A DNA stretch of 64,000 nt from Hormiphora californensis (lineage: Eukaryota; Animalia; Ctenophora): positions 8,432,001-8,496,000 of the forward strand of contig CM035352.1 of the NCBI GenBank assembly GCA_020137815.1. Reading direction: 5' to 3'. The notes beneath the pieces are model-generated. The model had not been told where the DNA came from and ran no database searches. It was given only the letters and a program-made list of their open reading frames with translations. Positions within the stretch are counted from its first letter, which is position 1, and every line of letters starts with the position of its first letter. Below are positions 12,358-63,198 of this stretch, one piece after another. Position numbers and translations under genes: made by a program.

Positions 12358-12849
12358 TGGGCAAATTTTGATTTGCCGCAGACGCCGTCTACACGCCGTT
12401 CAGACGTCGTCCAGACGGTACCCATCTAGACGGGTTTTCCGTCTGGACGGCGTGTAGAGGGCGTCAGACGGAGTCATATGGGCTTGAGACGTGCCGTTCA
12501 AACGGCCGTCTGAAACGGTTTCTACCCGTTTAAACGGATCAGTTACACGTAATTGGACGAAATCAGACGGAACTTCAGAAATCAGACGGAAACCAAACCC
12601 GTCTCAAGCACTGAGATGGGTTTGGTTTCCGTCTGATTTCTGAAGTTCCGTCTGATTTCGTCCAATTACGTGTAACTGATCCGTTTAAACGGGTAGAAAC
12701 CGTTTCAGACGGCCGTTTGAACGGCACGTCTCAAGCCCATATGACTCCGTCTGACGCCCTCTACACGCCTTCCAGACGGAAAACCTGTCTAGACGGGTAC
12801 GGTCTGGACGTCGTGTAGACGGCGTCTGCGGCAAATCAAAATTTGCCCA
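12358..12849. mobile_element. Near-perfect ~490-bp palindromic (hairpin) MITE
   Basis: Arms TGGGCAAATTTTGATTTGCCGCAGACG... mirror each other to a centre near 12608. Confidence 0.9.
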
Positions 12850-13186
12850 TCGGGTTGGTCACATTGATACCTGAGTGAGATCGACGTCGCGCGCGACTGA
12901 GATCGATCTCACATACATATTCTTCGCGGAGCGAGAATAGGTTGCAATGGAGCCAACCCATCGGGCAGATCCAATGGCTGTCTGGCGCCGTAGCCTCTAG
13001 CTTACTTAGTTTCAAATCTGTCATGTGATTTGAGTCTCCGCCAGACAGGATACAGTTTATGATTGAGAGTTTGCAAATGCTTATCACACGTTCATTCAAT
13101 CACACACACATTCACACACTAAATGCTCAACTTTTCACTGCACTGCTATGCAAACTCTATCACACTGTCACACACTCTGACTCAGC

Positions 13187-13209
13187 TTGTCAGGCCAATG
13201 CTCTGACAG
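13187..13209 (+). mobile_element. 23-bp micro-element, copy 1
   Basis: TTGTCAGGCCAATGCTCTGACAG flanked by GACTCAGC/GACTCGAC (degenerate 8-bp TSD). Confidence 0.75.
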
Positions 13210-13660
13210 GACTCGACGCGGTATAGCGGTACCACTGTACATGTGTCAAAGAATCAAACATAGCTCTTCACACATTTACAAACCCTCGAAAACAAATTTC
13301 AAAACAGCAACAGGTTCACAAGTTTTACAAATAAATAACTGTGTTGATCTGTACATATAAAATAAAACATAAATGCACTCTCTCTAATAAAAAACTAACT
13401 AAACCATAAAAACAGGAGCGAAAACCAGCATTATATCAACACCATGCGAGACCAGGATCTAATAAAATATTTGATAAACACTCTCGGTACTCCTGCTAGT
13501 CTTTTGTTGTACAAGATGTTGAACTCGGTGCATTACAGCGCTGGAAAGCGCCCCAGGGCAATGCTATAAAACCCAAAACACATCCAGTCGGCAGCTGGAA
13601 AACTCAAAACTGGGGGTAATAACACACACTGATAAATTCCCATGCACACATCTTGTTCTC

Positions 13661-35454: not shown

Positions 35455-38400
35455 CAGGGTGTGAACTGCATGTCGTGTTTGCTAGTCGCGAGCGCGCTTG
35501 CGAGACAAGCAAACACGTCAAGGTTCATTAACAAGCATGCTGCTCAGTCATTTTAGATTTAATACACAATGTAAGGATACCATGTAATAGGTGAGACTCT
35601 TGCCGTCACCCTCGTTCAAGTCCCGTGAAAAACGGAGCAGTACACGCAAACTGATGCCCATTTTCCTCGCGTGACCCCGATTCAGCAGTTTGAGACACCA
35701 ACTCTTTAGGGGGCCATATCTCAGGAACCAGACAAGATAGGAAAAATCGCCGTCTAACGAGGCGTACAGTTTTTAATCTAGTTTACCACTGTACCGGCCG
35801 TTTCACTCTCCGACCTAAAACAAAAATCGCAACCCCACAAAACTTCAAAATAATGAAATTCGCATCTCGCATGTCGTGTTGCATGTCGTGTTGCATGTCG
35901 TGTCATGTTATTGACGCGCTCGCGTTCAACTCTCACACAGCAGCTGCAGAACATGGCGGGAAACATCGAGGAGTAGAGAGAGGGTCGGTGCCGAATCAAA
36001 TATTTCTTGATCTTGATCTACTCCATTTCTCAGCTATCCTACCACTCATCAACTCGATCTCTCAGCTACCCTACCCCTCATCTACTCCATCTTTCAGCTA
36101 CCCTACCCCTCATCTACTCCATCTTTCAGCTACCCTACCCCTTATCTAGTCCATCTCTCAGCTACCCTACTCCTCATCTACTCCATCTCTCAGCTTCCCT
36201 ATTAGGGAAGCATAGAGATGGAAACGATTAGGGGTAGGGAATCCCTATCCATAATCGTTTCCATCTCTATGCTTCCCTAGCCCTCATCAACTCCATCTTT
36301 CAGCTACCCTACCCCTAATCTAGTCCATCTCTCCGCTACCCTACTCCTCATCTACTCCATCTCTCAGCTACCCTACCTCCCATTTACTCCATCTCTCAGC
36401 TACCCTACCTCCCATTTACTCCATCTCTCAGCTTCCCTACCTCCCATTTACTCCATCTCTCAGCTTACCTACCTCCCATTTACTCCATATCTCAGCTTCC
36501 CTACCTGCCATTTACTCCATCTCTCAGATACCCTACCTCCCATTTACTCCATCTCTCAGCTTACCTACCTCCCATTTACTCCATCTCTCAGCTTCCCTAC
36601 CTCCCATTCACTCCATCTCTCAGCTTCCCTACCTCCCATTTACTCCATCCCTCAGCTACCCTACCTCCCATTTGATCCATCTCTCAGCTTCCCTACCTCC
36701 CATTTACTCCATCTCTCAGCTACCCTACCTCCCATTTACTCCATTTCTCAGCTTCCCTACCTCCCATTTACTCCATCTCTCAGGGGTAGGAATGTTAGGA
36801 TAAATAAGAGATGGAGTAAATGGGAGGTAAGGAAGCTGAGAGATGGAGTAAATGGGAGGTAGGGAAGCTGAGAGATGGAGTAAATGGGAGGTAGGGCAGC
36901 TGAGAGATGGAGTAAATGGGAGGTAGGGAAGCTGAGAGATGGAGTAAATGGGAGGTAGGGAAGCTGAGAGATGGAGTATTTATGGGAGGTAAGGAAGATG
37001 AGAGATGGAGTAAATGGGAGGTAGGGAAGCTGAGAGATGGAGTAAATGAGGGGTACGGAAGCTGAGAGATGGAGTAAATGAGAGGTAGGGAAGGTAAGAG
37101 ATGGAGTAAATGGGAGGTAGGGAAGCTGAGGGATGGAGTAAATGGGAGGTAGGGAAGCTGAGAGATGGAGTAAATGGGAGGTAGGGAAGCTGAGAGATGG
37201 AGTAAATGGGAGGTAGGGTAGCTGAGAGATGGAGTGAATGGGAGGTAGGGTAGCTGAGAGATGGAGTAAATGGGAGGCAGGCATGGAGTAAATGGGAGGT
37301 AGGGAAGCTGAGAGATGGAGTAAATGGGAGGTAGGGTAGCTGAGAGATGGAGTAAATGGGAGGTAGGGTAGCTGAGAGATGGAGTGAATGGGAAGTAGGG
37401 TAGCTGAGAGATGGAGTAAATGGGAGGTAGGGAAGCTGAGAAATGGAGTAAATGGGAGGTAGGGTAGCTGAGAGATGGAGTAAATGGGAGGTAGGGAAGC
37501 TGAGAGATGGATCAAATGGGAGGTAGGGAAGCTGAGAGATGGAGTAAATGGGAGGTAGGGTAGCTGAGAGATGGAGTGAATGGGAGGTAGGGAAGCTGAG
37601 AGATGGAGTAAATGGGAGGTAGGTAAGCTGAGAGATGGAGTAAATGGGAGGTAGGGTATCTGAGAGATGGAGTAAATGGCAGGTAGGGAAGCTGAGATAT
37701 GGAGTAAATGGGAGGTAGGTAAGCTGAGAGATGGAGTAAATGGGAGGTAGGGAAGCTGAGAGATGGAGTAAATGGGAGGTAGGGTAGCTGAGAGATGGAG
37801 TAAATGGGAGATAGGGTAGCTGAGAGATGGAGTAGATGAGGAGTAGGGTAGCGGAGAGATGGACTAGATTAGGGCCTAGGGGTAGGGTAGCTGAAAGATG
37901 GAGTTGATGAGGGCTAGGGAAGCATAGAGATGGAAACGATTATGGATAGGGATTCCCTACCCCTAATCGTTTCCATCTCTATGCTTCCCTAATAGGGAAG
38001 CTGAGAGATGGAGTAGATGCTGTCAGGCCAATGCTCTGACAGAGTAGATGAGGAGTAGGGTAGCTGAGAGATGACTAGATAAGGGGTAGGGTAGCTGAAA
38101 GATGGAGTAGATGAGGGGTAGGATAGCTGAAAGATGGAGTAGATGAGGGGTAGGGTAGCTGAGAGATCGAGTTGATGAGTGGTAGGATAGCTGAGAAATG
38201 GAGTAGATCAAGATCAAGAAATATTTGATTCGGCACCGACCCTCTCTCTACTCCTCGATGTTTCCCGCCATGTTCTGCAGCTGCTGTGTGAGAGTTGAAC
38301 GCGAGCGCGTCAATAACATGACACGACATGCAACACGACATGCGAGATGCGAATTTCATTATTTTGAAGTTTTGTGGGGTTGCGATTTTTGTTTTAGGTC

Positions 38401-38757: not shown

Positions 38758-38860
38758 AAATAGTTTTTTGAGTAACAACAGCAAATAGATCTTTTGTACT
38801 TGTAGGACCAATTCCATATCTGCTCAGACGCATAGACATAATTTACACAACTAGAAAGAC

Positions 38861-38883
38861 CTGTCAGGCCAATGCTCTGACAG
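38861..38883 (+). mobile_element. 23-bp micro-element, copy 3
   Basis: Perfect 8-bp TSD AGAAAGAC. Confidence 0.92.
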
Positions 38884-40445: not shown

Positions 40446-41418
40446 TTAAAGTTTTTCCACTCCCTCAGTTACACCCTCGACAACATCTTTATCTCCCACT
40501 TCCTTCTTCTTCTCTCCATCTTCCTTCTTCTTCTCTCCCTCCTCCTTCTTTTTCTTGGCTTGTTTCTGAGGTTTAGCAGGTTTCACCTTCTGGTTCTGTA
40601 GACTCTCAGGAGAATCAATGGGGATGGTGACGGGTCCATCGTTCTGGATATGAACCTGCATGAACGCTCCAAACTCACCCTCTGAAATGGTACACACGGT
40701 TATCATGGTAACCATGGTAACACACACACACGGTTATCATCACACAAAGATCTCAGATAAAGCTGTGATAACGCTGTGAGAAACAAGGCCCGGTGACCGG
40801 TGTCCCTATAAAACAATGATCATGAATAACTAAAATTTTTAAAAAGTGGACAAACAAACCTTGTACTAAGCTTTCAGAATTGGGAACAATATTTCGAAGT
40901 TCAGAGATAAACTTCCGATACATTACAATGCTCTGTTCACTTTTCATGGCACTGTGAAAGTCTGGTCGAGTTCCTTTATTCAACACACACTGCAGGGTGA
41001 ACTGAGGAGGAGGATGTGAGATTCAGATAAGTAAGGAAACCCCCTCTCAGCTGAGATTCAGATGTAACTTTCTCAAGAAATGAGACTTATCAGACAATGA
41101 ATCGAGAAGAAGGGAGAACAAGACGAGAAAGTAAGAAAGATGATATATTAAGTGGGTATTCAGTTCACCCTGCAGCTGGCAGCAGGCTCGTTCCACACTA
41201 TCCAAACAGCATCTGGGGGCAATATAATATGGTCTACTAAACTACCTTGTACAAGAGATTCAGAGTTTGGTACAGCCTGACGAACTGCAGCACAGAATTT
41301 GTTGTACATTTTCTCACTCTCCTCACTCTTCATAGCCCCGTGGAAATCGGGTTTGTTGCCCTTTAGGACACACTGCAGAGTGAACTGAAATACAGGGTTA
41401 GGGAGAGAGAGAGAGAGA

Positions 41419-41500
<82 letters not shown>

Positions 41501-41572
41501 AAACAGACAGACAGACATACAGATAGACAGACAGATAGACAGACAGATAGACAGACAGACAGACAGACACAC

Positions 41573-41604
<32 letters not shown>

Positions 41605-44600
41605 GGACAGACATACAGACAGACAGATAGAGAAGATGTACCTGGCTAACAAGTAGGATACCGTAGTTGCACTGAAGAAGGTCAGCATCCCAAGGTTTTC
41701 CTGTCTCAGGGTGATCAAATATCCTCAACTTTACCAATTTATTTACCCTGAAACACACAGTTTTTTTATTTGTTTGTTTGTTTTATTATCAATTAGTTTG
41801 TTGAGTAATAAGGATCGGTTTATTGTTTATTAGCCGCATAGTTGATGAGGGTAAAAATGGGGTTATCCTAATCAATCATGACCATCGAATGATCCACCAA
41901 TTCTGTGTTATTTCTTTGAGATGACATTTTGATTAGTACATACTGCAAAATCATGACACGAAGTTAAAAAGATTAAATTATTATATTTACAAAACTTATC
42001 TTCTTTTCAGTTCACATGTGTCTAGCCTTTTATTAATCAGCGGTGGGCGTGTGGGAGAGTCTTGTTATGTTTTAGCCGGGAACTCGAACTTTAATTGTTC
42101 TTTAGTTGTGGGAAGTGTAGACACAGTGCCAGCTGCGACTCAAGATCGAACAAGGCAATGAGAGTCCAGGCTTTTATCTCGGATTAGTGCTATTTCGCTA
42201 GTATCTCTTCACATATCAAGTAGGATTAGTACTATCAAGCTGAGGCTGAACTTTGTTCTTACAGTTGAATGAAACCATCGAAATATTAGTCTTGGGCCCA
42301 CTCTGGCCCTGTCCTTCACTTGTATTCCTGGACTGTACCGATCTGAGTACCATCTGTCTCACCTTTCTCTTACGTGCCAAGATCACCAGAGGATTGATGG
42401 TGGAGTTGAGGGGTGACCCAACGTAGAGAGAGAACCGCTCCACGGCTCCACACGAGGTGAACACATCATACATGTCCTCTAGATAAGCAGTGAATAGGAT
42501 GGTATTGAAGAAGAGGTAGATAATTGAGATGAGAATGATGGTGATGGTGGCCCGTTTAATTACTGTCTGATCGTTTGAGAGCCTCCCCGCGCTACACAGG
42601 TATCCAAGGGAGATGGCAGTTGCTATGGTCACCGTTGTCAAGATCATAATCATTTCAATGAACATGATGGTCTGAAAATCGAAATAGTTTAGCAGCTCCG
42701 CAACTTCCACCTCAGTTAGTAGGCACAGTAATACCGTTATGAACTGGACTAGACTGAGAACTCCAAATGCAACCCATACGCCCTTCTTGGATATCTGATA
42801 GAATGGAAATCCGATGGAAATTGTCCTGGTAACGCTAAGAAGACATGTGATCATAGCGGAGTTGCGGATCAGTAGAAATGATGTGAAATCAAAGTATTTT
42901 ATATCGATAGCATCGTCCACCACGTAAACAATAATTGCCATAAGACACACTAGAGCATCAACGACGTTTAAACAATGAGTCAGTTTAGATGGAAGTCCTC
43001 TCTCCTTTAGGAGGACATTGATGATAAGGGATAGGACGTTTGCGATGATCCCTAGACAACCTGATACCAATCCCACGAGTAAGAAGTTTGAGGTGAAGAT
43101 GAATTCAATGATTTGGAGAGAGGTACCATTCGCAAAACATTCGGCTTCATCATGCTCATCGTCATACTCAGAGGTAGAGGACATGGGGAATTCTGTTGTA
43201 GCCTCCATAGTGGAATATAACTAGGAAATATTGAAGATAAAAAACTCAATTTGTTCAGGTTAGCTTTTGAAGCAAAATAGGCAACAAAACTTGTTTACAG
43301 CTCTAATTTCTATATAATATAGAAACAATTAGAGTTGAACGCGTCGGAGCGATATCATCAGGGAGTGATCGAACCGATAATTAGCGATCAAAACACCTTC
43401 ACTTTGACCAAGATCAGGAGGCGATTAGACATCGAAAGTTATATCGAAACAGATCTTGTTATTTATGGTCTACTATAATAGCTGCAATTGAACTTGTCGT
43501 GTTCTAACGTCTAACGCCGCGACAAAATTCGCCATCAGAAAGAAGTACTGCAGATATGTATAATATACCACATAGAACCATTTATTGCCAGCGGGTCAAT
43601 GGGATTCGGGGGATTGAGAGGAGTCAATAGGGGGTGAGAGGAGTTTTTGGGCTCTCTAGTATAGAGCTCTCTTGTGGCCTACTGAAACAACCATATTGGC
43701 TCTCTAGTATACTATAAAGTTCAGAACACGTACTGTGTGGAGACTGGTAGTAGAGGTAATAATTACTGGAGAATGGAGATACATTGTGGACAGAGAGGTC
43801 TCAGGAATTGGTAAAATTCTGTAAGAGCATTGGTATGATTCTAAATAGCCAGGCCTACAACAAGATCCTTGAATTATTCAGTTGACTCTCTATTTTGGGT
43901 GATTGAAACTATGATTTGACACTGAAAATGAGCCAGCCCAGCTAGCCGTCTAAATTGTTGTTATGTTCTAACCCTCCTTTACATTTGTAAACAGGGTCGA
44001 GCAAGGCAACTAATTTGGAGGTCCATTCAGGGAGCTTGCTTTTGTTTAGTCTCAATAATTCATAGCCTTAAGTATCGGACTCTGATGTCGGTGTCCCAAT
44101 TACTCCCTGATTTAGATACTCTAAATCAGAGTATCTAAATCAGGGGGTAAGGGACACCGACATATGCAGGAATAGCTATAGGGGTGAACGTTGTGAACCG
44201 CTCTAACCTATTAATCATCAGCTATATCACGTACTAACAACAAGACTACTTAGTGCCGCTACTATACCGGTGGACTAGGGTTGTATGTCAGTACACCACG
44301 TACACACGTTTAGGACGTGTGAGACTGTGTAGTAATGCCAGGCCTGAGACCATGTTATGTGTGTAAGCTAGAAAAGAGAAGCGTTTCTCAAGGAGCTTTT
44401 CAAACCAAACATCAGAATATTGAATTCAATGTTGCGAGAACCCATTTGGGATATCATAAGAAATTCCACTGAGAGGAAATCAACTCTCCATGCTATCCGA
44501 TAAATTTAGGAATTTTGATTGAAATCCAGCACGAATTCTGTATCTTGAGCAGTAAATACTGAACAACTCAATAGTGGCTGGGAATTTGTTCACACGCTAT

Positions 44601-47600
44601 GAGTTAATATCGCCTCAATTGGCACACGTGATAAGTCATATACAAAACCATACAGCACCCTCCGGCCTCCCCTCCCCCTAGCCTGTGTTATAAAAGGTGG
44701 ACCAGAACAAATTATATAATGAATACAAAAACTCATCTTACCAAATACACATCTAAAAATGTGATTACTGGACACGAGCGTGCTCCCTTTTCTATCACCC
44801 ATTAGTTCAGTATCAAATCATAACTTAGTTTTAATCGCCCAAAGTATATACCCAGGAATAAAGATATGACTGATAAACTTATTTAGTCTAGACTAAATAT
44901 TAAAGCTACATTTATGGGTTAACGTTGTTTTTCTTTTAAACGGCTCTAACCTATTATCAGCTATCACGTACTAACAACAAGACTACTTAGCGCCGCTACG
45001 ATACCGGTGGACTAGGGTTGTATGTCAGTACAACATATTGCCAGAACTGAGACCATGTTATGTGTGTTAGGGGGACCACATACAGCACTGTACTGAAATT
45101 CGCACCGCCGTATGTGGTGCCTCTAACTTCAGTTCTCACTAGCACATACAACACTTTCGGTGCAAACTCCAGTACGCACTGCCGTATGTGGTGCCTCTTA
45201 CGCGGCGTCATACACATTTTCATTTGGAATTTTCACTTGGAATTTTCATTTGAAAACCATCCATGCACATGCACGTGCAAGCTTCAAACACAAGTTAGAA
45301 CCATGGGACCTTCACTAAAGTGATCCTTGGATCAAAACAAATAAGTTAGTGAAGGTCCCGTGCTTCTAACTTGTGTTTGAAGCTTGCACGTGCATGCGCG
45401 TGGATGGTTTTCAAATGAAAATTCCAAATAAAAATGTGTATGACGGACTGTTACTGATAAATATCGGTGGGACTATCAGTACACAATCTCACGTGAGCTT
45501 AGCTCAGAAAAGATCAGTACGGTGCTGTATGTGCTCTTCGTACTGAACTGAAAGGTCACGTGGGGGTCACGTGCGCGCACTAGCCAATGACAGACCTGCA
45601 TCTCACAATACACACACACACCCACACCACAGCAACCAATAAGAGGCGCACGCACTCTCACTACGACAGAAAGGGCCACACCTAGAACAAGGGCGAGATT
45701 ATCCGACATATCGAGAAAATATGTGCTGCAATCGGGAAAGATAAGAGAGAGATAAGTGGAGATAAACATAACAAGAGGGAGAAAAGGTAGTAGAGAGAGT
45801 TCGGTATTAGTGGGAGGAAGATATTTCACAAAAAATTACGCGTTTTTAGCTTGTTTTGAAGGTTTTTTATTGATTGTTCAGTAAGAGGCACCACATACAC
45901 TCACTGTACTGAAGTTTCCACCGACAGTATGTGGTGCGACGTTACTGGAGTTCGCACCGGTGCTGTATGTGGTCCCCCTTAGCTAGAAAAGAGAAGCGTT
46001 TATCAAGGAACTATTCAAACCAAACATCAGAATATCGAATTCAATGTTGCGAGAATCCATGTGGGATATCATAAGAAATTCTACTGACGTCTGACAGGAA
46101 ATCAACTTATTACTTTGCTATCCGATAAATTTAAGAATTTTGGTTTAAATGCACCAGGAATGCTGTATCTTGAGCTGTAAATACTAGCTGAACAACTCAT
46201 CAATAGGTGGGTGGGAATTTATTCACACGCTAAGGGCATACGTGGCCTGGTCACACAACACGTTGCGGCACCATCCCCACTAGCCTTTGCAGTGTGATAC
46301 ACAGGGCAGGGTGGACTATGACAAATTAGATCGCAAATACACATCTAAAAAGGGACACGAGCGTGCTCCCCTTGAAAAAAGGATGGAACTGTACAACAAA
46401 CACTCTATTTCTATCACCCATTAGCTCTCCCCATCTATATCTGTTGGGTTACCAGTAATTTAAGGACACGTGTACCGTGCTGCCACACCAACCCCAAGGA
46501 CCCACCCCCCCCCCCGAACATGTACTATCCTGCCACATCAACCTACCAAACGAACCCCGACTGGGACCGAACCCGTGTGATTCGAGATGTCCTCCATTCT
46601 ATAATATAGTCGCGTAGCAGAACTTAGTCATGTGACAAGAACCTAGCGACCAATCCACTCAGCTGATCCTAAAGTTGAGCCAATAAGCGTGCAGGTTGTG
46701 GATATAGCGAGGATCTGAAGCAGGTATAGACGTTTTGCCAGCACCGGCCTTTATTATGTAGATGAATTGCACCAGAACTGTGCAGTTCCAAGCTGTAAAG
46801 AGTGCTAAACGGTCGGAAACAATAAAGACAGGTCATGGGTTTTAATGAGTAGTGCAGAATAGAAACTTGCAGACAGCTCTCAATCACCTAATTAGACAGT
46901 GCCTGAAATAACCTAATTACACTCATCTGACCCCACAAGAATTTGACTTTGAAACACTCGACTAAGAAGAAAAGCAATGATACTAACTTTACTTTAGGAT
47001 TGGACTACTACTATAGTATTACGAACGACTATATGTATAATCACAGCTGCTTAATGGTACTAACGACTTTAATCTTTGTATCACAGCTGTCTAGAACCGT
47101 GGTGATGGAGTTTAGATCACGTGCTATTTATTATCGTTCCTAATCGTGAATAATCGGGGGGGGGGCACTATGTTGTTATTTAACTAAATGGGGGGGGGGG
47201 GGGCACTATGTTGCTATTTAACTAAATGGGGGGGGGGGGCACTATGTTGCTATTTAACTAAATGGGGGGGGGGGGGCACTATGTTGTTATTTAACTAAAT
47301 GGGGGGGGGGGGGGGGCACTATGTTGTTATTTAACTAAATGGGGGGGGGGGGGGCACTATGTTGCTATTTAACTAAATGGGGGGGGGGGGCACTATGTTG
47401 CTATTTAACTAAATGGGGGGGGGGGGGGGCACTATGTTGTTATTTAACTAAATGGGGGGGGGGGGGGGGGGGCACTATGTTGCTATTTAACTAAATGGGG
47501 GGGGGGCACTATGTTGTTATTTAACTAAATGGGGGGGGGGGCACTATGTTGCTATTTAACTAAATGGGGGGGGGGCACTATGTTGCTATTTAACTAAATG

Positions 47601-50140
47601 GGGGGGGGGGGGCACTATGTTGCTATTTAACTAAATGGGGGGGGGGGCACTATGTTGCTATTTAACTAAATGGGGGGGGGGGGGCACTATGTTGCTATTT
47701 AACTAAATGGGGGGGGGGGGCACTATGTTGCTATTTAACTAAATGGGGGGGGGGGGGCACTATGTTGCTATTTAACTAAATGGGGGGGGGGGGGGGCACT
47801 ATGTTGCTATTTAACTAAATGGGGGGGGGGGGGCACTATGTTGCTATTTAACTAAATGGGGGGGGGGGGCACTATGTTGCTATTTAACTAAATGGGGGGG
47901 GGGGGGCACTATGTTGCTATTTAACTAAATGGGGGGGGGGGGGCACTATGTTGCTATTTAACTAAATGGGGGGGGGGGGCACTATGTTGCTATTTAACTA
48001 AATGGGGGGGGGGGGGGCACTATGTTGCTATTTAACTAAATGGGGGGGGGGCACTATGTTGCTATTTAACTAAATGGGGGGGGGGGCACTATGTTGCTAT
48101 TTAACTAAATGGGGGGGGGGGGGCACTATGTTGCTATTTAACTAAATGGGGGGGGGGGGCACTATGTTGCTATTTAACTAAATGGGGGGGGGGGGGCACT
48201 ATGTTGCTATTTAACTAAATGGGGGGGGGGGGGCACTATGTTGCTATTTAACTAAATGGGGGGGGGGGGCACTATGTTGCTATTTAACTAAATGGGGGGG
48301 GGGCACTATGTTGCTATTTAACTAAATGGGGGGGGGGGGGGGCACTATGTTGCTATTTAACTAAATGGGGGGGGGGGGGCACTATGTTGCTATTTAACTA
48401 AATGGGGGGGGGGGGGGCACTATGTTGCTATTTAACTAAATGGGGGGGGGGGGGGGGGCACTATGTTGCTATTTAACTAAATGGGGGGGGGGGGGGCACT
48501 ATGTTGCTATTTAACTAAATGGGGGGGGGGGGGGGCACTATGTTGCTATTTAACTAAATGGGGGGGGGGGGGGGGCACTATGTTGCTATTTAACTAAATG
48601 GGGGGGGGGGGGCACTATGTTGCTATTTAACTAAATGGGGGGGGGGGGGGGCACTATGTTGCTATTTAACTAAATGGGGGGGGGGGGGCACTATGTTGCT
48701 ATTTAACTAAATGGGGGGGGGGGGGCACTATGTTGCTATTTAACTAAATGGGGGGGGGGGGGCACTATGTTGCTATTTAACTAAATGGGGGGGGGGGGGC
48801 ACTATGTTGCTATTTAACTAAATGGGGGGGGGGGCACTATGTTGCTATTTAACTAAATGGGGGGGGGCACTATGTTGCTATTTAACTAAATGGGGGGGGG
48901 GGGGGGTCCGGCACTGAATGAGAGCTCTACAGCATGTGATTATTATTACCTTTGTCTATGACAAATTTACTATTACAGTCGGACCCCGATTTACCGGGAT
49001 GCTCGGGGGAAAGGGTTTTGCCCGGTAAATCGGGGTGCCCGGTATATCGGGGTCAAACACTGTTAATTTCCTATTTTGGGGGAAGATTATCCTCCCGGTA
49101 AATCGGGGTTCCGGTAAATCGGGGCCCGGTAAATCGGGGTCCGACTGTACTATCATCATCAAGAAAATGAAGATAATTAGTTATTAAATACCACAGGCCG
49201 GATGCCCATATACATAATATGTTATATCGTACGATGTAAAAGGGAAGGGATAAATATTTTATAATACCGGGGGTGGGGCATTTTTCCCTCGTCTTACGTC
49301 TACCAACTAAAATATTAAATTCCTATAAGGGAGCAACCACAGCTGCCAAGATAATTGTCCTCGGCATATATGGAATGACCCAAGAAGCTGAGCTTGAAGA
49401 AAGAGGTTGTTCTCACAATCATTAGTAATGCATGCTCTCATGGGCTATGAGGTCTTGTGGTGGCCACCGGTGGGTACTTATGCCATCCTATTTAAATAGT
49501 GCAGACTAGAGTTGTACTGCTAGAGTTGAACTGCCCCAGTCGATAACTCTGGTGGACGAGAAATAATAGTAGGTAGTCATAGTGGCCACGGATGAATTAT
49601 TGAGAGAAAGGCAAAATGTCCATAGTGAAAAAAGCAAAACCAAATTAAGGTCACTACCTTTGTGACACAAATTGTCAGCGCAATGCCTGACCACTCTTCT
49701 CCCGAATCTCAATGATTGGACGTGGTCGGAGAACAATATAATTATATTACTTATAGTGTTATACTGCTGTAATATTAACAGTAATAACAGTAAATGTAAT
49801 ATTTACAATTATGCTACAACGTATAAGAAAAACACTTACATCCACTGTATTTCTTTGTCAGTATCGGTTGTAGAGATGCCCAGTAAAACACACATTCCTT
49901 TCCCAATTGATCCTGTCGTCCGGTCACCCACTGAAACATAAAGGGTGGTTATCCGGGCAGTTTTGGGGTGTATCTCGATCTGTAATCTGCAGACTATGGT
50001 TATTTCGAGAAGAGCTGTGACGAAAACTGAAAACTGAAAACCAACAGCTAATATTATTATTCATGTCTGAGTTGAAATCAAGTTACAACTTACATACCAG
50101 TGACAGATGCTTTGGTGACCTTTTGAACTATCGCCCTCAT
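40446..50140 (-). CDS. DTD1: D-aminoacyl-tRNA deacylase 1 with two alternative copies of exon 4
   Basis: Exons 50098-50140 (MRAIVQKVTKASV), 49840-49930 (IGKGMCVLLGIS), 41642-41747 (LRIF..LLVSQ), 4A 41246-41384 or 4B 40860-41001 (FTLQ..PDFH.AM), 40446-40681 (GEFGAFMQVHIQNDGPVT). SQFTL and NDGPVT motifs intact. Confidence 0.95.
41156..41175 (-). promoter_or_regulatory. Putative intronic antisense element to both DTD1 exon-4 acceptors
   Basis: Pre-mRNA CUGCAGGGUGAACUGAAUAC is complementary to UCAG|UUCACCCUGCAG (4B, 16/16) and to GUAUUUCAG|UUCACUCUGCAG (4A, 20 bp with one G-U pair and one bulge). Confidence 0.65.
42216..43208 (-). CDS. Orphan rhodopsin-like (class A) GPCR, intronless, nested in DTD1 intron 2
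   Basis: 330-aa ORF with 7 hydrophobic segments; GIIANVLSL (TM1), LNVVD (TM2), LSVTRTISI (DRY equivalent), NSTINPLV (TM7). Confidence 0.88.
   Translation of the reverse strand: MEATTEFPMSSTSEYDDEHDEAECFANGTSLQIIEFIFTSNFLLVGLVSGCLGIIANVLSLIINVLLKERGLPSKLTHCLNVVDALVCLMAIIVYVVDDAIDIKYFDFTSFLLIRNSAMITCLLSVTRTISIGFPFYQISKKGVWVAFGVLSLVQFITVLLCLLTEVEVAELLNYFDFQTIMFIEMIMILTTVTIATAISLGYLCSAGRLSNDQTVIKRATITIILISIIYLFFNTILFTAYLEDMYDVFTSCGAVERFSLYVGSPLNSTINPLVILARKRKVRQMVLRSVQSRNTSEGQGQSGPKTNISMVSFNCKNKVQPQLDSTNPT
44083..44163. repeat. Short hairpin element
   Basis: ATGTCGGTGTCCC..CTGATTTAGATACTCT / AGAGTATCTAAATCAG..GGGACACCGACAT. Confidence 0.7.
44198..46424. repeat. Diverged tandem duplication of a ~600-bp segment; second copy interrupted by a MITE
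   Basis: 44198-44805 aligns with 44943-45069 plus 45979-46424. Confidence 0.85.
45070..45978. mobile_element. PIF/Harbinger-like MITE containing a nested hairpin (~45206-45444)
   Basis: TIR GGGGGACCACATACAGCAC, TTA TSD; empty site visible at ~44360. Confidence 0.9.
47156..48906. repeat. Minisatellite: constant 24-nt CACTATGTTGCTATTTAACTAAAT plus poly-G of variable length (roughly 48 units)
   Basis: Direct reading. Confidence 0.95.
48976..49147. mobile_element. Tc1/mariner-like MITE (CAGTCGGACCCCGATTTACCGGG); other copies ~52795-52878, 63359-63456, fragment ~29825-29860
   Basis: TIRs with TA TSD; multi-copy in the window. Confidence 0.9.
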
Positions 50141-50848: not shown

Positions 50849-54459
<3,611 letters not shown>

Positions 54460-62675: not shown

Positions 62676-63198
62676 ATGTTTTTCAAATCCGTTCTTTGTC
62701 TCTGTGTTCTCTTTGTCCTTGTCGCTGCGGACTTTAAATGCACCCAGAAGTAAGTTACTAAGTTACTAAGTTACTAAGTTACTAAGTTACTAAGTTACTA
62801 AGTTACTAAGTTACTAAGTTACTAAGTTACTAGAAGTAAGTTACTAACTTGTCAGGCCAATGCTCTGACAGTTACTACCTTCTTTTTACAGCTCAAACTT
62901 CTTTTTACCTTTTACAAAGGGTATCATTTTCTAATAATTTGACAAATTGTGTCCACCACGCCCCATCACTAACCCACCCCACTATCCCAGGCTAACCTTC
63001 ACCAATGGCCAGTCCATCACCCAGCCAGATTGTACTGCTAGCAAGAAGAAGGAATGTACCAAAGCAGTTACCTCCTCGGGCGCTACCGTCTACGGGTGTT
63101 CGTCCTGCTCTACACTGGTAAACAGTGGGGCAATAAAGGAGACTGATGAGTGTTCACAGTGTAAAAAATCCAAGGACAATTGTAATGACAGTCTGTAA
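62676..63198 (+). CDS. Small secreted 8-Cys protein, Ly6/three-finger-like (93 aa)
   Basis: Exons 62676-62749 and 62991-63198. Signal peptide MFFKSVLCLCVLFVLVAA; mature part starts xxKC and ends C..C.....NCN. Confidence 0.75.
62752..62848. repeat. (AAGTTACT)n expansion from the splice donor
   Basis: Begins at GAA|GTAAGTTACT; the donor is repeated at ~62833. Confidence 0.9.
62849..62871 (+). mobile_element. 23-bp micro-element, copy 4
   Basis: TSD TTACTAAC/TTACTACC (7 of 8 identical). Confidence 0.85.

Follow-up and report, generated by a model that had tools for sequence, protein, structure and literature searches.

Human ATE1 is the closest described counterpart of the locus reported here. 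A single element in the intron between its exons 7a and 7b (R3) competes for both 3′ splice sites, at R1 and R4, as proven by mutagenesis, and this layout enforces exclusive splicing (Kalinina et al., PMC7797038). R1 and R4 are intronic, lie directly upstream of the exons and affect pyrimidine tracts, and ATE1 also has a 30-kb R2/R5 ratio module (PMC7797038). In Dscam and srp, competing pre-mRNA helices pick one exon of a duplicated array; the Dscam docking site lies in a flanking intron and its pairing activates an exon by approximation, and srp uses two separate element pairs (PMC4691838, PMC6071210). On the level of whole genes, Abascal et al. described 11 vertebrate events in which exclusive exons in one lineage correspond to separate single-type paralogs in another (PMC4494069). 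Our comparisons with these systems draw on excerpts of the cited papers.

We analyzed a 64,000-nt stretch of the ctenophore Hormiphora californensis (assembly GCA_020137815.1, contig CM035352.1, positions 8,432,001 to 8,496,000; hereafter the window) containing the gene DTD1. The gene carries two homologous tandem exons, 4A and 4B, each used in mRNA, and the intron between them holds one element complementary to both 3′ splice-site regions (Table 1). As in ATE1, a single element lies between the exons and has two competing acceptor targets; gene and phylum are unrelated, so the resemblance would be convergent. In contrast to the intronic R1 and R4, 12 of the 16–21 bases of the DTD1 targets are coding (F-T-L-Q), the R2/R5 module is a feature of ATE1 rather than of the switch, and the ATE1 switch is proven in function whereas that of DTD1 is predicted from sequence (PMC7797038). 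By analogy, the DTD1 locus would work like ATE1, whose sequence-level hallmarks it shows, and would belong to an already known class of mechanism. With Dscam and srp it shares the principle of competing helices acting on duplicated exons, but the DTD1 element lies between the exons rather than in a flanking intron as a Dscam docking site does, and one central element that would mask acceptors differs from the two element pairs of srp (PMC4691838, PMC6071210). Dscam, to which an initial annotation of this DNA had likened the locus, is a more distant model than ATE1 for a one-element, two-acceptor layout. That annotation had also regarded the architecture as undescribed for DTD1. As a layout it is not new, since human ATE1, in the published description as excerpted, has a one-element, two-acceptor layout too (PMC7797038); for DTD1 itself the suggestion stands, as a search on DTD1 splicing, ctenophore exclusive exons and ctenophore DTD, with most subscription journals outside its scope, returned no report of such a case.

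Table 1 Features of the DTD1 locus (positions within the window)
Feature	Position	Strand	Basis
DTD1 exon 1 (coding part, 43 nt)	50098..50140	-	tblastn with Bolinopsis DTD and frame check
DTD1 exon 2 (91 nt)	49840..49930	-	tblastn with Bolinopsis DTD and frame check
DTD1 exon 3 (106 nt), S-Q of SQFTL at its end	41642..41747	-	tblastn with Bolinopsis DTD, splice sites, frame
Target A at the 4A acceptor (9 intron nt + 12 coding nt), 20 bp with the element; ATE1 R1 analogue	41373..41393	-	inverted repeat and duplex
Exon 4A (139 nt), common animal type LKGNKPDF	41246..41384	-	joined to exon 5 in run X1 contig; 96% identical to P. bachei model
Element complementary to both acceptors; ATE1 R3 analogue	41156..41175	-	inverted repeats, shuffles, duplexes; LQGEL in P. 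bachei peptide
Target B at the 4B acceptor (4 intron nt + 12 coding nt), 16/16 complementary; ATE1 R4 analogue	40990..41005	-	inverted repeat and shuffles
Exon 4B (142 nt), ctenophore B type NKGTRPDF	40860..41001	-	joined to exon 5 in run X2 contig; type also in Bolinopsis and Mnemiopsis gene models
Exon 5 to stop, NDGPVT motif and K/E-rich tail	40446..40681	-	RNA contigs, frame check

All five DTD1 introns are of the GT-AG type. The protein comprises 204 aa with 4A alone and 205 aa with 4B alone, both open, while including both exons or neither shifts the frame and leads to a stop at codon 135 or 113, respectively. Splice-site and translation checks bore out two claims of the initial annotation, that exon 4 is duplicated in two open copies with GT-AG sites (139 and 142 nt) and that using both or neither would break the frame, with early stops in either case. 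The two exons are identical at 92 of 144 aligned nt, and the closest named relative of 4A is found in Pleurobrachia bachei (96% identity over 46 aa), which marks the source of the window as a Pleurobrachia-like ctenophore. Upstream of DTD1, at about 50850–52800 (minus strand), lies a gene with a Q-rich tail that is kinase-like by sequence reading and presumably of the CDK8/19 type. DTD1 intron 2 contains a long tandem array with a unit of about 35 nt and a poly-C run (about 47150–48910, minus strand). This 8.1-kb intron also hosts, nested on the same strand, an intron-less hydrophobic open reading frame of 330 aa (42216–43208, minus strand) that looks like a seven-helix membrane receptor, had no Pfam match at E values up to 0.1 and shows 82% identity to a section of the P. 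bachei gene model P0001, where it is fused to exon 4A. Nested genes are common in ctenophores (PMC8527503).

Use of both exons was assessed in four RNA runs among 24 listed, on the basis of assembled contigs rather than raw reads. One near-identical contig of run X1 (depth 5.5) joins 4A to exon 5 (joint 40681–41246), spanning 564 nt and skipping 4B, and one contig of run X2, another sample of the same study, joins 4B to exon 5 (joint 40681–40860, depth 4.2). Both joints are bounded by CT..AC. In addition, 103 unplaced letters of the X1 contig equal exon 3 minus three shared bases, which suggests a 3-4A joint. These contigs back the predicted origin of two isoforms from 4A and 4B as far as use of both exons is concerned. 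Of the junctions proposed for counting, 4A-5 and 4B-5 were recovered, each in one contig, and a 3-4B joint was not seen in the contigs of the four runs. A 4A-4B joint was listed in none of the four, a weak negative given two informative contigs and the loss of rare variants in assembly, and a joint skipping both exons was likewise absent from all four, again as judged from just two informative contigs. Contigs of depth 4–6 lose minor variants and tell of the use of both exons, not of their ratio or of strict exclusivity. Run X24 held the transcript of a diverged relative, with 12 differences in 84 nt of exon 5. Run X3 (share 0.09) was rejected as a DTD1 signal after yielding low-complexity matches only; for this reason, the small shares of the other listed runs, probably microsatellite words, were discounted and left unused.

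The complementarity of the element to both acceptors was recovered by inverted-repeat and duplex searches exactly as the initial annotation had read it. An inverted repeat of 16 nt (100%) links 41160–41175 to 40990–41005 at 4B, and one of 17 nt (94%) links 41159–41175 to 41373–41389; on 4A the pairing grows to 20 bp if a single bulge and a single G-U are allowed. Each helix covers the AG and 12 coding bases; at 4B, pairing takes in just four intron bases and leaves the pyrimidine tract uncovered. When the intervening intron was shuffled with dinucleotides preserved, no perfect match at the 4B AG was longer than 12 in any of 20,000 cases (0/20,000 reached 13 bp), and the duplex energy of either helix was reached in 0 of 1,000 shuffles; the two matches are not independent, since the acceptors are duplicates of each other and a double match is partly automatic. 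The window has 681 acceptor-like YAG sites, and 17 of these find a match of at least 14 no farther than 300 nt away; 16 of the 17 fall in a single repeat region (36.2–38.0 kb), and the last is the 4B acceptor. Exact 11–12-mer targets of the element core occur in the window only at this acceptor. As further structures, the window contains an array of 32-nt units in both orientations (36200–38000) and an inverted repeat whose arms, each about 150 nt long, match perfectly (12466–12752), and an Rfam search gave two matches, both far under the gathering score.

We propose that, with both exons spliced to exon 5, the intronic 20-mer probably serves as an ATE1-type switch that masks one 3′ splice site at a time; such a toggle is the most likely mechanism for the choice between 4A and 4B. 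Once transcribed, the element would fold back and pair with the 4A acceptor; with the AG of this acceptor hidden and 4A looped out along with its donor, 3-4B-5 would be favored. The 4B acceptor emerges 154 nt later, and the element may then switch to it, freeing 4A and blocking 4B in favor of 3-4A-5. As one element would be unable to cover both acceptors, skipping of both exons would be disfavored; double inclusion would be disfavored too, whichever acceptor the element pairs with, and leakage would be a substrate of nonsense-mediated decay (NMD). Folding kinetics and the speed of elongation would determine the ratio of isoforms, and the products would be two DTD1 forms differing from the F-T-L of the active-site motif SQFTL onward.

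The element appears to have left a trace in a related species. The P. bachei model P0001 continues for 73 residues past 4A and contains LQGEL, which corresponds to the element in frame 2 and is the sole four- or five-residue word common to this tail and any frame of the intervening intron. The chance of LQGEL in such a tail is about 2e-5, and some shared five-residue word arose in 69 of 5,000 shuffles. The model is faulty in that it fuses the nested gene, and its tail opens with a repeat-like peptide; from this peptide trace in the gene model of one close relative, the element seems to be kept in P. bachei. A short dispersed repeat in the window (38860–38880, 13180–13224, 62845–62868 and about 38030) has the translation SEHWPD, also present in the P0001 read-on peptide.

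Exclusivity might instead stem from splice-site competition combined with NMD, the element being a neutral relic of a short inverted acceptor duplication that fits both sites by acceptor homology. A stop at least 50–55 nt upstream of the last junction renders a transcript eligible for NMD. Because double inclusion places its stop 116 nt upstream of this junction, it would be eligible, but skipping both exons puts the stop in the last exon, where it escapes the junction rule; NMD would clear the former and not the latter and could explain part of the exclusivity. A relic would be at home in a window rich in inverted repeats, where 67 of all 4,121 YAG sites have a match of at least 16 (the 45 longest being repeats), and the protein by itself already constrains the FTLQ codons. 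However, the exons are old, as 20 of 27 synonymous codons outside the helix differ, and a neutral copy should have decayed; identical synonymous codons number 3 of 4 under the helix versus 7 of 27 elsewhere, a difference that is not significant (p=0.087). The element is moreover a mosaic that fits both targets: at the sole difference within the exons it follows 4B (a G-U pair on 4A), whereas its 3′ end follows intron bases specific to 4A. It also seems kept in P. bachei while the flanking intron fails to align. Since the exons are old yet the element matches 4B in the exon part and 4A in the intron bases, we infer upkeep of both pairings and consider the relic explanation unlikely.

Folding predictions bear on how a toggle between the two acceptors would operate. 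The isolated duplexes are near-equal in predicted energy (-32.2 and -33.2 kcal/mol). In folds of the growing chain, the A helix stands at 0.77–1.0 from 41155 to 41050 and fades as more intron is added, while the B helix reaches 0.98 at 40990. At equilibrium, forced A was 2.9–15.8 kcal/mol worse than forced B in ten of ten windows, and the free optimum lay 0.2–4.3 kcal/mol below the forced-B fold in six of the ten; in the free ensemble of 41400–40970 neither helix is present. Forced-helix energies were used as a pair-forbidding constraint removed the alternative helix too or had no visible effect. A CT/CTGT microsatellite fills most of intron 3 (41400–41630) and acts as the 4A pyrimidine tract. 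Purine-rich parts of 4A fold onto this microsatellite in the predictions, which disfavors the A helix. Of the predicted folding behavior, an A helix in the growing chain and a B helix once its target is transcribed were both found, while a toggle balanced at equilibrium was not. With equilibrium favoring B, the toggle therefore needs kinetics, and an early A helix followed by refolding onto 4B would amount to a kinetic switch in these models.

The same predictions could be read as a functional but one-sided pairing, in which a stable hairpin on the 4B acceptor keeps 4B minor and regulated and the 4A match is a by-product of homology. In two windows containing both targets, full-length folds put the B helix at about 0.99 and leave the A helix near 0, as this explanation would have it, and the consistently worse forced A fits as well, but the element extends over 4A-specific intron bases absent from 4B, the A helix dominates before 4B is transcribed, and in ATE1 double inclusion is prevented by the upstream helix (PMC7797038), which together make a one-sided hairpin quite improbable. 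A distant branch point close to the 4A donor might also enforce exclusivity by steric hindrance, and the intron does have branch-point-like words, at positions 83 and 95, with a pyrimidine tract of about 40 nt behind them. This explanation is hardly credible, as the words are over 80 nt away from the donor, the stretch between them and the 4B acceptor contains six AG dinucleotides, and there are ordinary branch-point candidates at -34 and -25.

Both exon types recur in lobate ctenophores as separate gene copies. Bolinopsis microptera has an A type with tail (XP_063677557.1) and a B type of 155 aa without tail (XP_063677558.1), a 364-aa model of Mnemiopsis leidyi (KAL5265328.1) comprises a B copy followed by an A copy, and a further genomic fragment, P0207, contains a B-type segment with the same exon ends. 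Exon 4B groups with the lobate B copies (SH-aLRT 92/UFBoot 84), while an approximately unbiased (AU) test did not reject grouping of 4A and 4B by species (p=0.2, gaps unscored). For the constant part, grouping of the Hormiphora gene with lobate B was rejected (p=0.008), whereas neither a grouping with lobate A (p=0.36) nor monophyly of the lobate copies (p=0.76) was rejected, and the tree placed the Hormiphora gene outside all lobate copies with weak support (87.9/33). Ciona was left out of trees and AU tests. Within each lobate species, the DTD1 copies (P0206, the Mnemiopsis model above; P0003; P0127) share residues in the exon 3 region, and these within-species similarities suggest gene conversion between copies. 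Because lobates hold both types and 4B groups with lobate B, the A/B split most likely predates the Pleurobrachia–lobate divergence, with both forms under selection; what is most likely new here is this age of the two types and their occurrence as an exon pair versus tandem gene copies. This pattern resembles that of Abascal et al., although in DTD1 the AU test does not fix the direction of change and the lobate structures derive from protein models (PMC4494069). Trees and AU tests would fit either exclusive exons becoming genes or tandem genes becoming exons, and a second exon 4 within a lobate copy would be invisible in the protein models. The lobate B-type genes were found by full-length protein search; a search with 4B alone among longer proteins found no homolog. 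A metagenome scan with 4B returned six loci, namely a lobate-type A transcript, four intron-less bacterial-like DTD genes and one spurious match. The bacterial NKGTRPDF matches were rejected as a sign of bacterial likeness, as they were chosen by that very search pattern.

At the protein level, both 4A and 4B exceed the cut-off of the Pfam family PF02580 (Tyr_Deacylase; 33.7 and 31.6 bits, cut-off 25), and the SQFTL and NDGPVT motifs are kept in both isoforms. The B type differs from the common animal type by a 9-residue loop ending in KGTR instead of an 8-residue loop with KGNK. Among 208 loops from 206 retrieved homologs, most of them from animals, 202 are of the latter kind, and the B signature of one inserted residue plus TR for NK was present in three, all of them lobate B copies. 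Where animals have Lys, the B type has Arg, as in Aquifex-like (2dbo) and other bacterial loops. The length of the B loop was rejected as a bacterial trait, since Plasmodium DTD and the sequences P0210, P0213 and P0214 have the same length. SQFTL and NXGP(V/F)T are named DTD motifs, the main-chain atoms of the SQFTL Phe-Thr form the oxyanion hole and Lys107 of PfDTD contacts adenine (PMC3845328, as excerpted). Exon 4 starts at this Phe-Thr and, by alignment to 3knf, extends past the position of PfDTD Lys107. As B retains the catalytic motifs unchanged, both isoforms are likely active.

Bacterial DTDs and their eukaryotic counterparts favor opposite discriminator bases (PMC8754408, as excerpted), and the DTD papers searched by term yielded no named residues that set this tRNA-code switch. 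A changed tRNA preference of the B type is a bold guess that more probably fails than holds. The fuller idea carries a similarly small chance: the ctenophore B type, similar to bacterial enzymes in the loop after SQFTL, would be a second chiral proofreader of distinct function that prefers another tRNA or discriminator base. Pleurobrachiids would dose it by an independently evolved ATE1-like toggle on active-site codons, and lobates would have split it off into a tandem gene.

Should the DTD1 switch be confirmed, ctenophores would have arrived convergently at the splicing switch of ATE1, in a compact form of about 400 nt that lends itself to testing. With the A/B pair, one can ask directly whether the exon 4 loop sets tRNA preference, and, if B were a distinct proofreader, this pair, the same but for one exon, would amount to a natural swap experiment on the tRNA-code switch of DTD. 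The ctenophore B-type DTD1 is retained in two orders, in the form of either an exon or a gene copy, and this retention points to two non-redundant forms of proofreading.
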